Part shown: positions 32,941 through 54,588 of the stretch, piece by piece | How positions within the stretch are numbered: the stretch's first letter is position 1 | How the letters are laid out: the number at the start of each line of letters is the position of its first letter | Sequence record: OR995200.1 | Direction: 5' to 3' (one strand) | DNA: 64,000 nucleotides | Source: Escherichia phage JY01 | The notes under the pieces: model-generated | What the model was told of the DNA's origin: nothing | What the model saw: the letters and a program-made list of their open reading frames with translations, nothing else | Databases searched by the model: none | Translations under genes and position numbers: made by a program

Positions 32941-33327
32941 TTATTCGAGGGAAAGAAGATACTTACTCTGGTAAAACATTCCAGTAATATCATCTATCGT
33001 GCTTTGAATGGCTGGAGGCATTTCTTTATAAATGCTGTTAGATTGGTCTAGTATGCGATCAATCATTTTAATTGTGTCGGTAGGAAGTTTACTGGCATCT
33101 GGAATTGAAGGCGTGTATTTTCTACCAGAATACCCCAAATATTGCTCACCAAATTTATCAATCAAATCTGGCAATTCGGAGAAAATAAAATCGTATGCTT
33201 TGTGTCTAGCATAACTTTTAGTTTCAAAATGCGCAGAATGAAAATAAGCTTGTGCAGCCATTAATAAACCTAAGTATTCATCTGCCTTTGAAGGTTTTCC
33301 ACTTTGTGAAAAGTCGCTGAATTTCAT
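32941..33327 (-). CDS. Hypothetical protein
   Basis: 128 aa ORF upstream of rI. Confidence 0.45.
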
Positions 33328-33617
33328 TCAGTCTCCAATTTAATGTTCATAATTCTAGCGTATGATTGTGCCATCTCCGCGCCTCGTTCTATACATTCAA
33401 AATCAGAAGAGCACGGGTCATTTTTATAGGTCGTTCTCATAAAACTATAGAACTGTTCAGATGATTCTACGCTTTTATTTTCAAAAAGCATATAAACATG
33501 TCTAATACCAGATTCCATAAATTTATCAAAATGAGGATCGACATTCGCTTCAATCGATGGTGATAAAGCAAATGACAATCCTAGCATGGCAAATAGTGCC
33601 GTTGCTTTTAAGGCCAT
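33324..33617 (-). CDS. rI: Lysis inhibition regulator (antiholin)
   Basis: 97 aa with N-terminal signal-anchor; sequence recalled as T4 RI-like; adjacent to tk. Confidence 0.75.
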   Translation of the reverse strand: MALKATALFAMLGLSFALSPSIEANVDPHFDKFMESGIRHVYMLFENKSVESSEQFYSFMRTTYKNDPCSSDFECIERGAEMAQSYARIMNIKLETE

Positions 33618-33884: not shown

Positions 33885-34466
33885 CTAACCGAGCTTTTTA
33901 GTTAATTCGTTCCAGTGTTTTCTACACAAAGAAACATAAATTTCATCACCAATACAGATTTGATTACCTTCTTTAACTGGTGTTCCATCTTCCATTAATC
34001 GAGCTGTCATAATCGCTTTTTTGCCGCAATGACAAACTGCCTTTAGTTCAATAAGTTTATCTGCAATCGCCAAAAGTTCTTTAGAACCTTCAAACAATTT
34101 TCCAGCGAAATCAGTCCTTAATCCATAAGCCATAACAGGAACATTATATGTATCAACAATTCGGCTTAATTGGTGCACCTGTTCAGTTTTTAAAAACTGA
34201 GCTTCATCTACAAATACGCAATGAATATCTTTTTGTGCTTCAGCCCATTTATAGAACTCGAAAATATCCATATCATCTGTAATAATATTCGCTTCCTGCT
34301 TAATTCCAATGCGAGAAACAACTTCACAGACAGAATCGCGAGTATCAATAGCAGGCTTAAGAACTAATACACCCATTCCACGTTCTTTATAATTATGTGC
34401 AGCAGTCAAAAGAGAAGCAGATTTTCCAGCATTCATTGCTGCATAAGTAAAAATTAAACTCGCCAT
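33885..34466 (-). CDS. tk: Thymidine kinase
   Basis: 193 aa; P-loop MNAGKSASLL and C-terminal zinc cysteines. Confidence 0.9.
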   Translation of the reverse strand: MASLIFTYAAMNAGKSASLLTAAHNYKERGMGVLVLKPAIDTRDSVCEVVSRIGIKQEANIITDDMDIFEFYKWAEAQKDIHCVFVDEAQFLKTEQVHQLSRIVDTYNVPVMAYGLRTDFAGKLFEGSKELLAIADKLIELKAVCHCGKKAIMTARLMEDGTPVKEGNQICIGDEIYVSLCRKHWNELTKKLG

Positions 34467-35058: not shown

Positions 35059-35246
35059 TATTCTTCTACATGTTGTTTACGACCTTTCTTATCAATAAAG
35101 GTATATTCAACGAATGCCCCAATGTAGTCTTTATCTACATCATGTGGACTATTAATTGGACATTTAGTACGGCAAATGCGTTCCCATTGACGAATAATTA
35201 CTGCTTTGTTTTTAGGATCAAACGGATGTGGGTAATGCACTTTCAT
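35034..35246 (-). CDS. Hypothetical protein
   Basis: 70 aa ORF. Confidence 0.4.
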   Translation of the reverse strand: MKVHYPHPFDPKNKAVIIRQWERICRTKCPINSPHDVDKDYIGAFVEYTFIDKKGRKQHVEEYCLKVTWL

Positions 35247-35697
35247 AATCCACCACTATTAAATCAATATCAGGAGTAAACATGTCGATTAATTTAGAAA
35301 CCTTATCCCAATCGCCGCCAGCAATACCACAACCTATGCGTGGAATGTAAATTACCGGTTTAAACAAAAGGGTTTCTGCCTGTAGATTTAATTCTATCAT
35401 GCAGTTTACTAAAGCACCATAATCAAGATTAGGACCTGGTTCGTATTGCGTATACAGGTTATAGCATATACCAAATCCCGTAGGACTATGTTTAAAAACA
35501 ATAGACATATCGCCTAATTTATCGCGAGAACCGTACTCAGTAGTGGTTTTATCTATTTCTAAAATTTTGGGATAGGCTCTGGCTAATTGACCCGCTACAC
35601 CTGAACCCATAGTATGAAAACAATTGCACCCGTGCGCAATAATATTACCTTCAAGAAAGAGGGCGACAATATCGCCCTTGATATATTTTACAATCAT
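35218..35697 (-). CDS. Macro-domain-like protein
   Basis: GDIVALF..IAHGCNCF..MGSGVAGQLARAYP resembles macro domain nucleotide-binding loops. Confidence 0.5.
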   Translation of the reverse strand: MIVKYIKGDIVALFLEGNIIAHGCNCFHTMGSGVAGQLARAYPKILEIDKTTTEYGSRDKLGDMSIVFKHSPTGFGICYNLYTQYEPGPNLDYGALVNCMIELNLQAETLLFKPVIYIPRIGCGIAGGDWDKVSKLIDMFTPDIDLIVVDYESALPTSV

Positions 35698-36035
35698 CTA
35701 GTACTCAATCCTCGATTATAAGAATCTACCAAACGGTCAACCATTGAATGACAAGCGGCTTTATCTTTCTCCTCCGCAACTGAACATTCTAAGGTATTCC
35801 ACTTTTTAGCATATCGTTTTAACAATGTATCATTTTTGTATCTGCTTGATTTATCTCTTTCTCCGTCTTTATATGCATATATTAATTTCTGCGCAAATTC
35901 AGCTTGGCATGCTTTATTTTTCCCGCAATAATCCGCTGCAGTACGGTTTACATACTCTCTAATTTCAGTATATGATGTATCTGCTAACGCAGAAAATGAA
36001 ATTAATCCTATACATAAAACCAAAATTTTAGTCAT
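35694..36035 (-). CDS. Secreted cysteine-containing protein
   Basis: Signal peptide MTKILVLCIGLISFSALA. Confidence 0.45.
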   Translation of the reverse strand: MTKILVLCIGLISFSALADTSYTEIREYVNRTAADYCGKNKACQAEFAQKLIYAYKDGERDKSSRYKNDTLLKRYAKKWNTLECSVAEEKDKAACHSMVDRLVDSYNRGLSTR

Positions 36036-36573
36036 TTACTATTTCCAAAAGTTTATTATTTTTAAGGTAATTAGCCTTTTCTAGGACTTCAGAAGCATAT
36101 TTAGAACCTGCTTTAACATTCCATCCCGAATTATAAGAGGATATTGCTTTTCTTATATCGCCCTTATGTATATTTAACCAATAAGAAAGTTCAATGTACG
36201 CCCAGGAAGCTGAATTGGACCGTTTATTCAACATTCTTTTTATTTCAGCATCGGTCATATTATAACCAAGTTCCTTAACTCTTGCTCGCATAGTAGGCAA
36301 ATAATTTTGGAACATTCCGTAGGCGTGATGCTTTGGTTTAGATTTTAAATTAACTCCGCCAGAGCTTTCTTGCCATAAAATGGCTGCCATTATATGACCT
36401 AATCCGCTCTTGTGGATATTTTTGTGTGTTTTATATTTTCCATCCTTAGAAAATTGTTCCCCGAATTGATACGCGTAACGCATGTTATCGAGTTGGACAT
36501 TACTGAAAGTATGCTCGGAGCTATGTGCCATCATTGAAATGGCCAATAGACCAGCGAGTAGTGCTTTTCTCAT
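36028..36573 (-). CDS. Lytic transglycosylase-like protein with signal peptide
   Basis: QESSGG..AYGMFQ catalytic-region motif; N-terminal signal peptide. Confidence 0.5.
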   Translation of the reverse strand: MRKALLAGLLAISMMAHSSEHTFSNVQLDNMRYAYQFGEQFSKDGKYKTHKNIHKSGLGHIMAAILWQESSGGVNLKSKPKHHAYGMFQNYLPTMRARVKELGYNMTDAEIKRMLNKRSNSASWAYIELSYWLNIHKGDIRKAISSYNSGWNVKAGSKYASEVLEKANYLKNNKLLEIVND

Positions 36574-36580
36574 GCTTACC

Positions 36581-37042
36581 TCATTGAGTTTTAATTACTG
36601 CTTTAGAAGCCTTTCCTGGTAAACGACGACTGTTGATAATTGCCATCCTGCATTGGAGTGACGGGTCTTTGAACTTCTCATTAGGTTTACAAACTGTAAA
36701 TCCAAGCCAAAGATTTCCATCTGTGATTTCTAAACGTCCAGGACGATATTCAACCCCATCAATAAAATCCTCGTCAATGTCAGGACGCGGAGGCATACTC
36801 AGGAATTCATTAACTTCTAAAACATGGTCTTTTATTTTGTGGAATAATTCAAAAACATATGTCTCATCAATCTCCCGTTGAATTGCACGATCAAGAAGAT
36901 GTTGAGAATATTTTAGATGAAACGATGAGACTCCTGCTGCTTTTGATGCCTCACGAATCTCATTGTTAATTTGACGAAACTCCGACTCAAAATGACGACG
37001 AAGCTTATTTCGACGGATAAAAACTTCTGTATTGATAGTCAT
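36581..37042 (-). CDS. regB: Endoribonuclease RegB
   Basis: 153 aa; sequence and position recalled as T4 RegB. Confidence 0.75.
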   Translation of the reverse strand: MTINTEVFIRRNKLRRHFESEFRQINNEIREASKAAGVSSFHLKYSQHLLDRAIQREIDETYVFELFHKIKDHVLEVNEFLSMPPRPDIDEDFIDGVEYRPGRLEITDGNLWLGFTVCKPNEKFKDPSLQCRMAIINSRRLPGKASKAVIKTQ

Positions 37043-37101
37043 GTTGTTCTCCTCTTAACTGATAGAAAAATTATACCACAGTCAAGAGGAAAAGTAAACA
37101 G

Positions 37102-37422
37102 TTATTCTTTAAATCTAATCAATTTATTCATAGACTTTGAAACTTCTGCACGAACCTCATGTAAGTTTTTAAGCTGTTCAAGACGCTGCTCATAGTAAGC
37201 AATTTCATCTTCTTCGAGACAGTCCTGTGAATCTTCTTTAAGATAACGTGCATAGTCCTGAAAAGCTTTACGGACTACTTCCTGGAAGTCATCAAGACTT
37301 TGAATTTTCTTAGGAGCGACAGATACACGACGAGGTGCAGTATAATACTCATAACCAAACCCTGCACTTAATTGAGCCATTAGTATTTTTCCTCTGGTTT
37401 GAACACTGCACGACAAGCCCAC
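37102..37422 (-). CDS. Hypothetical protein
   Basis: 106 aa ORF. Confidence 0.45.
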
Positions 37423-37646
37423 ATACTGGCTTCTTTGAGTTTCGTTTTAGCAATAGTTAACTGATCGAGGCTTTCAGCATAATTCTTCGCGAGTTCATAG
37501 TCTTCACAGCTATCAAATGCTTCCCAAAATTCATCGTATAAAGCATCAAAGATAAGTCCTAAACGAACTTCAGCGTCTTTGATAGCATTCACTTTACCGA
37601 TTTTCTCTTCAGTATGCGGCTTATAACCTTTAATGTCTTCAATCAT
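37380..37646 (-). CDS. Hypothetical protein
   Basis: Start set at internal ATG; overlaps neighbour. Confidence 0.4.
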
Positions 37647-39239: not shown

Positions 39240-39713
39240 TTATTTGAACGATTTAACGTACTGAATAGAACCCTTACTATTCACAAAGGCAATTTTACCA
39301 TTTTTATTATACATGGTAGCAGTACGCTGATAACCATAGGTTTGTTTACCAGATTGATAACCAACTAATGCAAAATTATCTTCACCCATTTTATTCTGTT
39401 TAGCGCGAATGCGTTCATGACCATGTGCCATAAGAACCTTAGCATCACCAGTTGCAATGGATCGACGAGTTTTTTCATCTTCAACTGCATTAACAAAGTC
39501 GTCAAATGAATCAAATTTAGCATGAGATTTATTATACAATTTTCCATCTACTGCATAATTATATCCCTGTACATCCATCTCAACTTCTGTACCATCATCC
39601 AATACAGCAGTAATTTTTTGACCTTTTTTAAATTTCAAAAGATCAGTAAAAGATTCAGCAATAATTTGAGAATTAATAGCTGCTTCAGTGATAAATTCTT
39701 GATATGTTTTCAT
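39240..39713 (-). CDS. Internal-protein-like protein with capsid targeting sequence
   Basis: N-terminus MKTYQEFITE followed by A (LxE-type prohead protease site). Confidence 0.55.
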   Translation of the reverse strand: MKTYQEFITEAAINSQIIAESFTDLLKFKKGQKITAVLDDGTEVEMDVQGYNYAVDGKLYNKSHAKFDSFDDFVNAVEDEKTRRSIATGDAKVLMAHGHERIRAKQNKMGEDNFALVGYQSGKQTYGYQRTATMYNKNGKIAFVNSKGSIQYVKSFK

Positions 39714-40198: not shown

Positions 40199-41167
<969 letters not shown>

Positions 41168-52877: not shown

Positions 52878-54588
52878 TAACCTTAATTGGTTTGTTGGTG
52901 TTGTTGAAGATAGAATGGACCCATTAAAATTAGGTCGTGTTCGTGTTCGTGTTGTTGGTCTGCATCCACCTCAAAGAGCACAAGGTGATGTAATGGGTAT
53001 TCCAACTGAAAAATTACCATGGATGTCAGTTATTCAACCTATAACTTCTGCAGCAATGTCTGGAATTGGAGGCTCCGTTACTGGACCGGTAGAAGGAACT
53101 AGAGTTTATGGTCATTTTTTAGACAAATGGAAAACTAACGGAATTGTCCTTGGTACATATGGCGGAATAGTTCGCGAAAAACCTAATAGACTTGAAGGAT
53201 TTTCTGACCCAACTGGACAGTATCCTAGACGTCTAGGAAATGATACTAACGTATTAAACCAAGGCGGAGAAGTAGGATATGATTCGTCTTCTAATATTAT
53301 CCAAGATAGCAATCTAGACACTGCGATAAATCCTGATGATAGACCATTATCAGAAATTCCAACTGATGATAATCCAAATATGTCAATGGCTGAAATGCTT
53401 CGCCGCGATGAAGGATTAAGACTAAAAGTTTATTGGGATACCGAAGGATATCCGACAATTGGTATTGGTCATCTTATCATGAAGCAGCCAGTTCGTGATA
53501 TGGCCCAAATTAATAAAGTTTTATCAAAACAGGTTGGTCGTGAAATTACCGGAAATCCAGGTTCTATTACAATGGAAGAAGCGGTAACTTTATTTGAACG
53601 TGATTTAGCTGATATGCAACGTGACATTAAATCACATTCTAAAGTTGGCCCAGTTTGGCAAGCAGTTAATCGTTCTCGTCAAATGGCATTAGAAAATATG
53701 GCATTTCAGATGGGTGTTGGCGGTGTAGCTAAATTTAACACAATGTTAACTGCTATGTTAGCAGGAGATTGGGAAAAAGCATATAAAGCCGGTCGTGATT
53801 CATTGTGGTATCAACAAACAAAAGGCCGTGCATCCCGTGTTACCATGATTATTCTTACGGGGAATTTGGAATCATATGGTGTTGAAGTGAAAACTCCAGC
53901 TAGGTCTTTATCGGCAATGGCTGCTACTGTAGCAAAGTCTTCTGACCCGGCTGACCCTCCTATTCCAAATGACTCGAGAATTTTATTCAAAGAACCAGTT
54001 TCTTCATATAAAGGTGAATATCCTTATGTACATACAATGGAAACTGAAAGCGGTCATATTCAGGAATTTGATGATACCCCTGGGCAAGAACGATATAGAT
54101 TAGTTCATCCAACTGGAACTTATGAAGAAGTATCACCGTCAGGAAGAAGAACAAGAAAAACTGTCGATAATTTGTATGATATAACCAACGCTGATGGTAA
54201 TTTTTTGGTAGCCGGCGATAAAAAGACTAACGTCGGTGGATCAGAAATTTATTACAACATGGATAATCGTCTTCACCAAATAGATGGAAGCAATACAATA
54301 TTTGTACGTGGCGATGAAACTAAGACGGTTGAAGGTAATGGAACTATCCTAGTTAAAGGTAATGTTACTATTGTAGTTGAAGGTAATGCTGACATTACAG
54401 TTAAAGGAGATGCTACCACTTTAGTTGAAGGAAATCAGACTAATACAGTAAATGGAAATCTTTCTTGGAAAGTTGCTGGGACAGTTGATTGGGACGTTGG
54501 TGGTGATTGGACAGAAAAAATGGCATCTATGAGTTCTATTTCATCTGGTCAATACACAATTGATGGATCGAGGATTGACATTGGCTAA
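52861..54588 (+). CDS. 5: Baseplate central spike with lysozyme domain
   Basis: 575 aa; internal lysozyme domain MAEMLRRDEGLRLKVYWDTEGYPTIGIGHLI paralogous to gene e; C-terminal VEGN-type beta-helix repeats. Confidence 0.95.
   Translation: MEMISNNLNWFVGVVEDRMDPLKLGRVRVRVVGLHPPQRAQGDVMGIPTEKLPWMSVIQPITSAAMSGIGGSVTGPVEGTRVYGHFLDKWKTNGIVLGTYGGIVREKPNRLEGFSDPTGQYPRRLGNDTNVLNQGGEVGYDSSSNIIQDSNLDTAINPDDRPLSEIPTDDNPNMSMAEMLRRDEGLRLKVYWDTEGYPTIGIGHLIMKQPVRDMAQINKVLSKQVGREITGNPGSITMEEAVTLFERDLADMQRDIKSHSKVGPVWQAVNRSRQMALENMAFQMGVGGVAKFNTMLTAMLAGDWEKAYKAGRDSLWYQQTKGRASRVTMIILTGNLESYGVEVKTPARSLSAMAATVAKSSDPADPPIPNDSRILFKEPVSSYKGEYPYVHTMETESGHIQEFDDTPGQERYRLVHPTGTYEEVSPSGRRTRKTVDNLYDITNADGNFLVAGDKKTNVGGSEIYYNMDNRLHQIDGSNTIFVRGDETKTVEGNGTILVKGNVTIVVEGNADITVKGDATTLVEGNQTNTVNGNLSWKVAGTVDWDVGGDWTEKMASMSSISSGQYTIDGSRIDIG

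Follow-up and report, generated by a model that had tools for sequence, protein, structure and literature searches.

The 64,000-nucleotide stretch of Escherichia phage JY01 (sequence record OR995200.1) analysed here, hereafter the window, carries the gene vs.1 at 36028-36573 on the minus strand. From its sequence and predicted structure, the product, Vs.1, is probably a small, soluble, Sec-exported periplasmic peptidoglycan glycosidase with a GH23/SLT fold, which would serve as an accessory transglycosylase and not as a lysis enzyme. In the list of open reading frames (ORFs), the gene starts with ATG and has 181 codons, with the TAA stop included in the coordinates. This confirmed the 181-amino-acid ORF in the tk-regB block that had been noticed in a preliminary description of this DNA. 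A tblastn comparison showed that the protein is 100% identical to Vs.1 of phage T4 (ORF 61.4, UniProt P13311, X04567.1). The surrounding 1.9-kb region shares 99.4% identity with Shigella phage Sf24, whose counterpart gene carries the note 'similar to phage T4 Vs.1', and about 99% with many Tequatrovirus genomes. The ORF is thus the T4 gene vs.1, in a Tequatrovirus.

The Pfam SLT domain (PF01464) was matched by residues 61-154 of Vs.1 (36112..36393, minus strand, as for all motifs below) with 25.1 bits against a curated cut-off of 21.3 and E=1.4e-5, and SLT was matched independently by 28 of 31 diverse homologues (E<=0.01). The AlphaFold2 (AF2) model computed from a 31-sequence alignment, with a predicted local distance difference test (pLDDT) score of 88.9 and a predicted template modelling (pTM) score of 0.83, displayed an all-alpha, lysozyme-like fold of the GH23/SLT type. 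A match to the SLT domain had been set beforehand as the test of the proposal that this protein resembles lytic transglycosylases, and the Pfam match was obtained together with a confident predicted GH23 fold. The two motifs cited for that proposal, QESSGG and AYGMFQ, are both present. Motif I, QESSGG (residues 68-73; 36355..36372), contains Glu69 (codon 36367-36369), the predicted catalytic residue, and next to it Ser70; E69 aligns with the catalytic Glu of Escherichia coli Slt70 and MltE as well as with Glu73 of goose-type lysozyme. Motif II, AYGMFQ (residues 84-89; 36307..36324), is by alignment the counterpart of G-L-M-Q in Slt70 and MltE, in the variant form G86-M-F-Q89 located 17 residues past E69 (about 15 for the G-L-M-Q of family 1 lytic transglycosylases, the Slt70/MltC/MltD/MltE/MltF type). 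Motif III, SYNSG (residues 146-150; 36124..36138), is the counterpart of A-Y-N-A-G and aligns with AYNTG of g-type lysozyme, and a motif IV-like YASEV in the C-terminal helix (residues 159-163; 36085..36099) aligns with Y-S/A-N-D-V of g-type lysozymes.

In the close family of 31 aligned sequences, E69, G86, F88, Q89, Y147, N148 and G150 are invariant. When 1.84 billion cluster representatives were searched exhaustively with the profile, 418 related clusters emerged, mostly stand-alone proteins of 160-200 amino acids, and conservation was counted in the 138 representatives of 50%-identity clusters that covered both motifs. E69, S/T70, Y147 and G150 were retained in 138/138 of them, while G86 was found in 134, Y159 in 128, V/I163 in 122 and N148 in 119 of the 138. 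Such conservation of the catalytic residues is what would be expected of an active enzyme and not of a binding scaffold. A catalytically silent Vs.1, acting as a peptidoglycan binder or decoy that, for example, blocks or titrates host autolysins or their regulators, would fit the facts that activity of Vs.1 has never been reported, that vs.1 lies among anti-host and anti-defence genes (tk.4/AdfM, vs.4) and that the Gln of motif II varies across the wider family. The retention of the Glu-Ser pair and the YN.G motif by every one of the 138 representatives, down to very low identity, argues against a silent protein and makes it highly improbable. One sequence that matched the Vs.1 profile, P0092 (2679 amino acids), did so in 18 separate stretches, all at profile positions 127-166 in the YN.G helix region; P0092 is possibly a repeat protein, or else these matches are an artefact of low complexity.

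GH23 includes both transglycosylases and lysozymes, and fold scores do not tell them apart. An exported Vs.1 could accordingly be imagined as a hydrolytic muramidase resembling goose-type lysozyme, or as a chitinase-like GH23 hydrolase, using water and not the C6 hydroxyl group of N-acetylmuramic acid (MurNAc) as the acceptor. Goose-type lysozymes are the only PDB sequence-profile matches of the Vs.1 family, the C-terminal motif YN.G...G..Y...V...A.Y.K.N is nearest to these enzymes, and one neighbour of Vs.1 in BFVD is named 'lysozyme like chitinolytic enzyme'. On the other hand, the equivalents of the goose lysozyme residues Asp86 and Asp97, which presumably position the water used in hydrolysis, are non-acidic in Vs.1: in a weak, motif-anchored alignment with ostrich lysozyme g (E=1.6), Asp86 corresponds to a variable, Lys-rich position and Asp97 to the invariant Tyr91. 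The 31-homologue alignment contains no other conserved acidic residue between E69 and G86. This single-carboxylate arrangement, by so weak an alignment, would favour a lytic transglycosylase. Not every g-type lysozyme strictly requires the two Asp residues, and their absence from Vs.1 is not decisive. On balance, we consider a hydrolase unlikely.

Vs.1 starts with a predicted Sec signal peptide, MRKALLAGLLAISMMAHS (residues 1-18; 36520..36573, minus strand). Signal peptides were judged throughout by the classical rules of n-region charge, a hydrophobic core of 7-15 residues, the residues at -3 and -1, and the lipobox. The N-terminus MRKALLAGLLAISMMAHS|SEH can be divided into n, h and c regions (MRK / ALLAGLLAISMMA / AHS|S); it carries two positive charges, its hydrophobic core spans 13 residues, and the residues at -3 and -1 of the predicted signal peptidase I site, AHS|SEH, are small. 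The predicted mature chain (residues 19-181; 36031..36519, minus strand) would consist of 163 amino acids, with a mass of 18.8 kDa and an isoelectric point of 9.65, and a cut after Ser18 would leave SEHTFSNVQLDNMR as the N-terminal semi-tryptic peptide. Among 31 homologues, the n-region carries 1-3 positive charges except in P0075, which has none. All 31 possess a hydrophobic core (best 10-residue Kyte-Doolittle mean 1.9-3.75) and a small-x-small site at residues 17-24, and a lipobox was found in none. Since the residues of the signal peptide drift and its architecture stays, the feature itself, and not its sequence, appears to be under selection. A hydrophobic N-terminus was also seen in 116 of 135 representatives of the wider family, and many of the exceptions resemble truncated gene calls. 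The signal peptide claimed in the preliminary description is therefore upheld as one of the cleavable type, with a canonical architecture that is conserved across the family. A lipoprotein was considered and ruled out, as Vs.1 of the window has neither a Cys residue nor a lipobox.

The N-terminal segment could also be an uncleaved membrane anchor or a signal-anchor-release (SAR) domain, from which an enzyme held inactive at the inner membrane would be released on depolarisation. SAR domains are known from T4 RI and from the SAR endolysins of phages P1 and 21, and rI lies in the same gene block as vs.1 (33324-33617). The core ALLAGLLAISMMA is rich in Ala, Gly and Ser, and tethering would explain how a cell-wall enzyme made early is tolerated. 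However, a core of about 13 residues is too short for a membrane span, it is followed in every homologue by the small-x-small cleavage motif at residues 17-24, and in the AF2 model a detached, low-confidence helix (residues 3-14) and a disordered linker (residues 15-24) precede the domain. We therefore regard retention in the membrane as very unlikely.

The expression of vs.1 has been recorded in T4. In a dual RNA-seq and proteome time course, vs.1 was classed as early RNA and middle protein, regB RNA was early, and P13311 was detected by mass spectrometry in T4-infected cells with an intensity that rose over the time course (PMC9697503 supplement). In the window, a T4 early-promoter-like site (GTTTACT, a 17-nucleotide spacer and TG-TATAAT; 37070..37098, minus strand), identified as a consensus match only, is located upstream of regB and is the probable source of a regB-vs.1-vs transcript. 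Consensus matching revealed no MotA-type middle promoter directly upstream of vs.1, and internal promoter-like matches in the region were not in excess (26 versus 28.2 expected in shuffled sequence). The ribosome-binding site of vs.1 contains no GGAG; its Shine-Dalgarno sequence GAGG (36579..36582, minus strand), 5 nucleotides before the ATG, overlaps the regB stop codon (36581-36583) and is not a GGAG site for RegB. As for fitness, knock-down of vs.1 by CRISPRi-ART in 2025 was scored 'Semi-Fit' (score 0.81, Kolmogorov-Smirnov (KS) p 0.099), and both regB and vs were 'Not Fit' (PMC11879866 supplement). Five semi-fit T4 genes, vs.1 being one of them, were listed by the authors as 'with purely unknown function' (PMC11879866). 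The main text of a T4 transposon study does not mention vs.1 (10.1101/2025.11.20.689424).

An endolysin and a virion enzyme were rejected as roles for Vs.1 because of the timing of its RNA (early) and protein (middle) and because of its own signal peptide. The late expression, the access through a holin or a SAR domain and the requirement for lysis that define a phage endolysin were not found for vs.1, which was only semi-fit on knock-down. T4 lysis depends on e and t. Vs.1 has no detectable similarity to lysozyme e (40202-40693, minus strand) or to the gp5 lysozyme domain (53380-53877, plus strand), in agreement with the suggestion in the preliminary description that it is a third wall enzyme separate from both. 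Its statement that vs.1 is far from lysozyme e has to be corrected: the two genes are only 3.6 kb apart, because ipII and ipIII, which T4 has between denV and e, are missing from this phage. As to the proposed action in the periplasm during infection, the early and middle expression fits infection rather than lysis, and export and activity stay predicted. A link of Vs.1 to lysis inhibition, the other possibility raised there, is pure speculation.

From the motifs, the predicted fold and the expression data, a sequence of events can be proposed for Vs.1 as an accessory periplasmic transglycosylase. The gene would be transcribed together with regB from an early promoter, and the protein would accumulate in the middle period, as has been shown for the identical T4 protein. 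The 18-residue signal peptide would direct the product to the Sec pathway and be cut at AHS|SEH, delivering a basic 18.8-kDa enzyme to the periplasm. There, Glu69 is predicted to act as the single acid/base catalyst, which would first protonate the glycosidic oxygen and then activate the C6 hydroxyl group of MurNAc. Cleavage of the bond between MurNAc and N-acetylglucosamine (GlcNAc), MurNAc-beta-1,4-GlcNAc, would thereby produce the 1,6-anhydroMurNAc end known from Slt70, MltE and EtgA. Cuts within the glycan strands seem probable, because Vs.1 resembles MltE and EtgA in being a bare catalytic domain. Vs.1 would thus play an accessory part, remodelling or loosening the sacculus of the infected host, and would contribute modestly to fitness.

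Several observations weigh against this reading. A phmmer search of the PDB with the single Vs.1 sequence gave no match, the family profile reached only the goose-type lysozymes there, below threshold (E 0.3-3), and in hhalign comparisons with the single sequences of E. coli Slt70 and MltE (EmtA) the catalytic motifs aligned with a probability of <1%. Since similarity to solved transglycosylases is so weak, the assignment rests on the Pfam match, the motifs and the predicted structure. Q89 is kept in just 69 of the 138 representatives, and His takes its place in 52. The signal peptides were judged by the classical rules only. With p about 0.1, the CRISPRi-ART effect of vs.1 is weak, and its guides, placed at the regB/vs.1 junction, are possibly polar on vs. 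A literature search on vs.1 returned only a 2006 comparative-genomics paper and two omics supplements, with no enzymatic, localisation or processing data. Finally, early production of an endo-acting enzyme that diffuses freely should be hazardous unless its activity is low or kept in check, and the proposed role leaves this unexplained.

The gene immediately downstream, vs (35694..36035, minus strand, from the ORF list), offers a further lead. Its ATG falls within the end of vs.1, with an overlap of 8 nucleotides (junction AAATGACTAA), and it encodes a protein of 113 amino acids with a signal peptide, MTKILVLCIGLISFSALA|DTS (…SFSALA|DTS), and four Cys residues (C37, C43, C84 and C95). The pairing of the two genes was surveyed in 80 related loci from IMG/VR. 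In 40 of these (L011-L050), all T4-like and with Vs.1 identities from 100% to 39%, a Vs homologue is the next gene, at a gap of -7 to +8 nucleotides. They represent every T4-like lineage sampled but the Aeromonas phage 31/25 type. These homologues are 99-119 amino acids long, apart from one of 85 amino acids in L021, where the gene is apparently truncated. When 20 Vs homologues were aligned, with identities to Vs of the window down to about 20%, four Cys and two Gly were the only invariant residues, and an A-x-A-type signal peptide was found in 20/20. Such features are typical of periplasmic proteins that are exported and held by disulfide bonds. An exported Vs would be hard to square with its decades-old annotation as a 'valyl-tRNA synthetase modifier', a cytoplasmic function. 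Sequence and structure searches gave little else: the four-helix AF2 model of Vs, at pLDDT 61, was too poor for a fold search, the Vs family profile found no relative in the PDB, and a word-index homologue search with Vs returned 6 proteins only. Genomes of the Aeromonas phage 31/25 type, RB43-like genomes and those of Ackermannviridae and Felixounavirus lack the vs.1-vs pair, and Vs.1 can therefore work without Vs.

A recent preprint reported that, of all T4 genes, vs shows the strongest requirement on M9-glucose compared with LB (10.1101/2025.11.20.689424). We tentatively suggest, while rating it as rather doubtful, that the vs.1-vs pair is a conserved two-gene module acting in the periplasm, in which Vs, of about 11 kDa and with two disulfides, partners, restrains or targets Vs.1. 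If so, envelope remodelling would underlie both the requirement for vs on minimal medium and the semi-fit score of vs.1. Synteny alone, with no functional link between the genes, or a dual localisation of Vs could also account for these data. The conserved pairing of vs.1 with an apparently periplasmic Vs is, in any case, a new lead.

Homologues of Vs.1 were detected by tblastn in 2045 phage records. Those of Ackermannviridae (Det7 gp70) and Felixounavirus (finno_46) keep the N-terminal export architecture and the catalytic motifs. The Ackermannviridae homologue is longer, at about 205 amino acids, including an extended signal region and a C-terminal tail, and it is always directly followed by a conserved gene of about 212 amino acids (199-212) that has no signal peptide. 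This fixed neighbour, which differs from vs, follows at a gap of 0 nucleotides (L006 3570-4208, which is Det7 gene 71, and L056-L081), with a 4-nucleotide overlap in L090. In Escherichia phage finno (Felixounavirus), the homologue (L007 3001-3549) is named 'putative lysin' and directly follows rIIA-rIIB, with an i-spanin/o-spanin pair 1.2 kb downstream of it; in Acinetobacter phage Mokit the homologue is found 1 kb upstream of rI. Vs.1 homologues thus recur, in a loose sense, near lysis-timing genes. Their wide occurrence, with export and catalytic features retained in the homologues examined from Straboviridae, Ackermannviridae and Felixounavirus, suggests that large virulent phages with Gram-negative hosts generally benefit from remodelling the sacculus from the periplasmic side before lysis. 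Possible reasons are room for cell enlargement in lysis inhibition, faster lysis, muropeptide release and envelope conditioning.

In the window, vs.1 is located between regB (36581-37042, minus strand), the gene on its 5' side, which encodes the T4 endoribonuclease RegB (Pfam REGB_T4, E=8e-69), and vs, with tk (33885-34466) further downstream. The gene order regB-vs.1-vs-tk.4 is the same as in T4. On the other side of regB, the gene at 37380-37646 (minus strand) is the orthologue of T4 Vs.4 by the Sf24 annotation, and Vs.4 is presumably Acb2, a cyclic-nucleotide sponge that counters CBASS. The macro-domain gene tk.4 (35218-35697, minus strand; Pfam Macro, E=1.3e-7) has a T4 orthologue that was named AdfM, an anti-DarTG2 factor, in a 2025 preprint (10.1101/2025.11.20.689424); an anti-defence gene is thus a near neighbour of the vs.1 block. 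Just 3' of the vs stop and within the 5' end of tk.4 lies a strong 8-bp GC-rich hairpin (AGGGCGA…TCGCCCT; 35659-35679), which received a terminator-like call on each strand and may act as an RNA structure between these two genes. The phage differs from T4 in that a single Ip4-like internal-protein gene, noted in Sf24 as 'similar to phage T2 Ip4', is present between vs.8 and denV (39240-39713, minus strand), and the small ORFs between tk.2 and tk.4 are also unlike those of T4.

The similarity of vs.1 to SLT was published by Nolan et al. in 2006 for 6/6 T4-like genomes, a result that corroborated the lysozyme-domain matches obtained earlier for T4 vs.1 with PSI-BLAST, cited there as reference 15 (PMC1524935). 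The SLT prediction is therefore about 20 years old and already in the literature and databases. Reference 15 of that paper is reportedly the 2003 T4 genome review. Database labels vary: RefSeq gives 'hypothetical protein', PHROGs family 600 has 'unknown function', UniProt calls many Vs.1 orthologues 'Transglycosylase SLT domain-containing protein', and NCBIfam has no model that matches Vs.1. T4 is the best-studied virulent phage, yet it has a conserved and expressed protein, predicted to be an exported wall enzyme, with no assigned role. Our analysis adds a family-wide case for export and catalysis and points to vs as a probable periplasmic neighbour.

Compared with known systems, Vs.1 of the window agrees with T4 Vs.1 and its orthologues in protein and gene order, and the neighbouring tk.x and internal-protein genes differ from those of T4. 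Among cellular transglycosylases, MltE is a lipoprotein and Slt70 has large superhelical U and L domains, whereas Vs.1 would be soluble, a bare domain whose N-terminal helix and hairpin (residues 25-58 of the AF2 model) are specific to the family. Vs.1 is 17-18% identical to MltE and Slt70 and has G-M-F-Q-N-Y in place of G-L-M-Q. The EtgA-type transglycosylases agree with Vs.1 in size, signal peptide and fold. They are encoded inside operons for envelope-spanning machines, such as a secretion, pilus or flagellar apparatus, and activated by a machine component, whereas no apparatus gene is found near vs.1, the neighbours being regB, vs, tk.4 and tk; in addition, the second acidic residue of EtgA, Asp60, is missing from Vs.1. 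IagB, IpgF, VirB1 and P19 of plasmid R1 are likewise small secreted transglycosylases that are specialised for secretion and conjugation systems. Goose-type lysozymes differ from Vs.1 in the equivalents of Asp86 and Asp97, which by the weak alignment are not acidic in Vs.1, in their eukaryotic origin and in their disulfide bonds, Vs.1 having no Cys. Phage-encoded wall-cutting enzymes that share the SLT-type fold with Vs.1 include T7 gp16, phiKZ gp144 and phi6 P5. These proteins and gp5 are parts of the virion that act at entry, unlike Vs.1, and T4 e is cytoplasmic, late and holin-dependent, whereas Vs.1 has its own signal peptide and belongs to the early to middle period.

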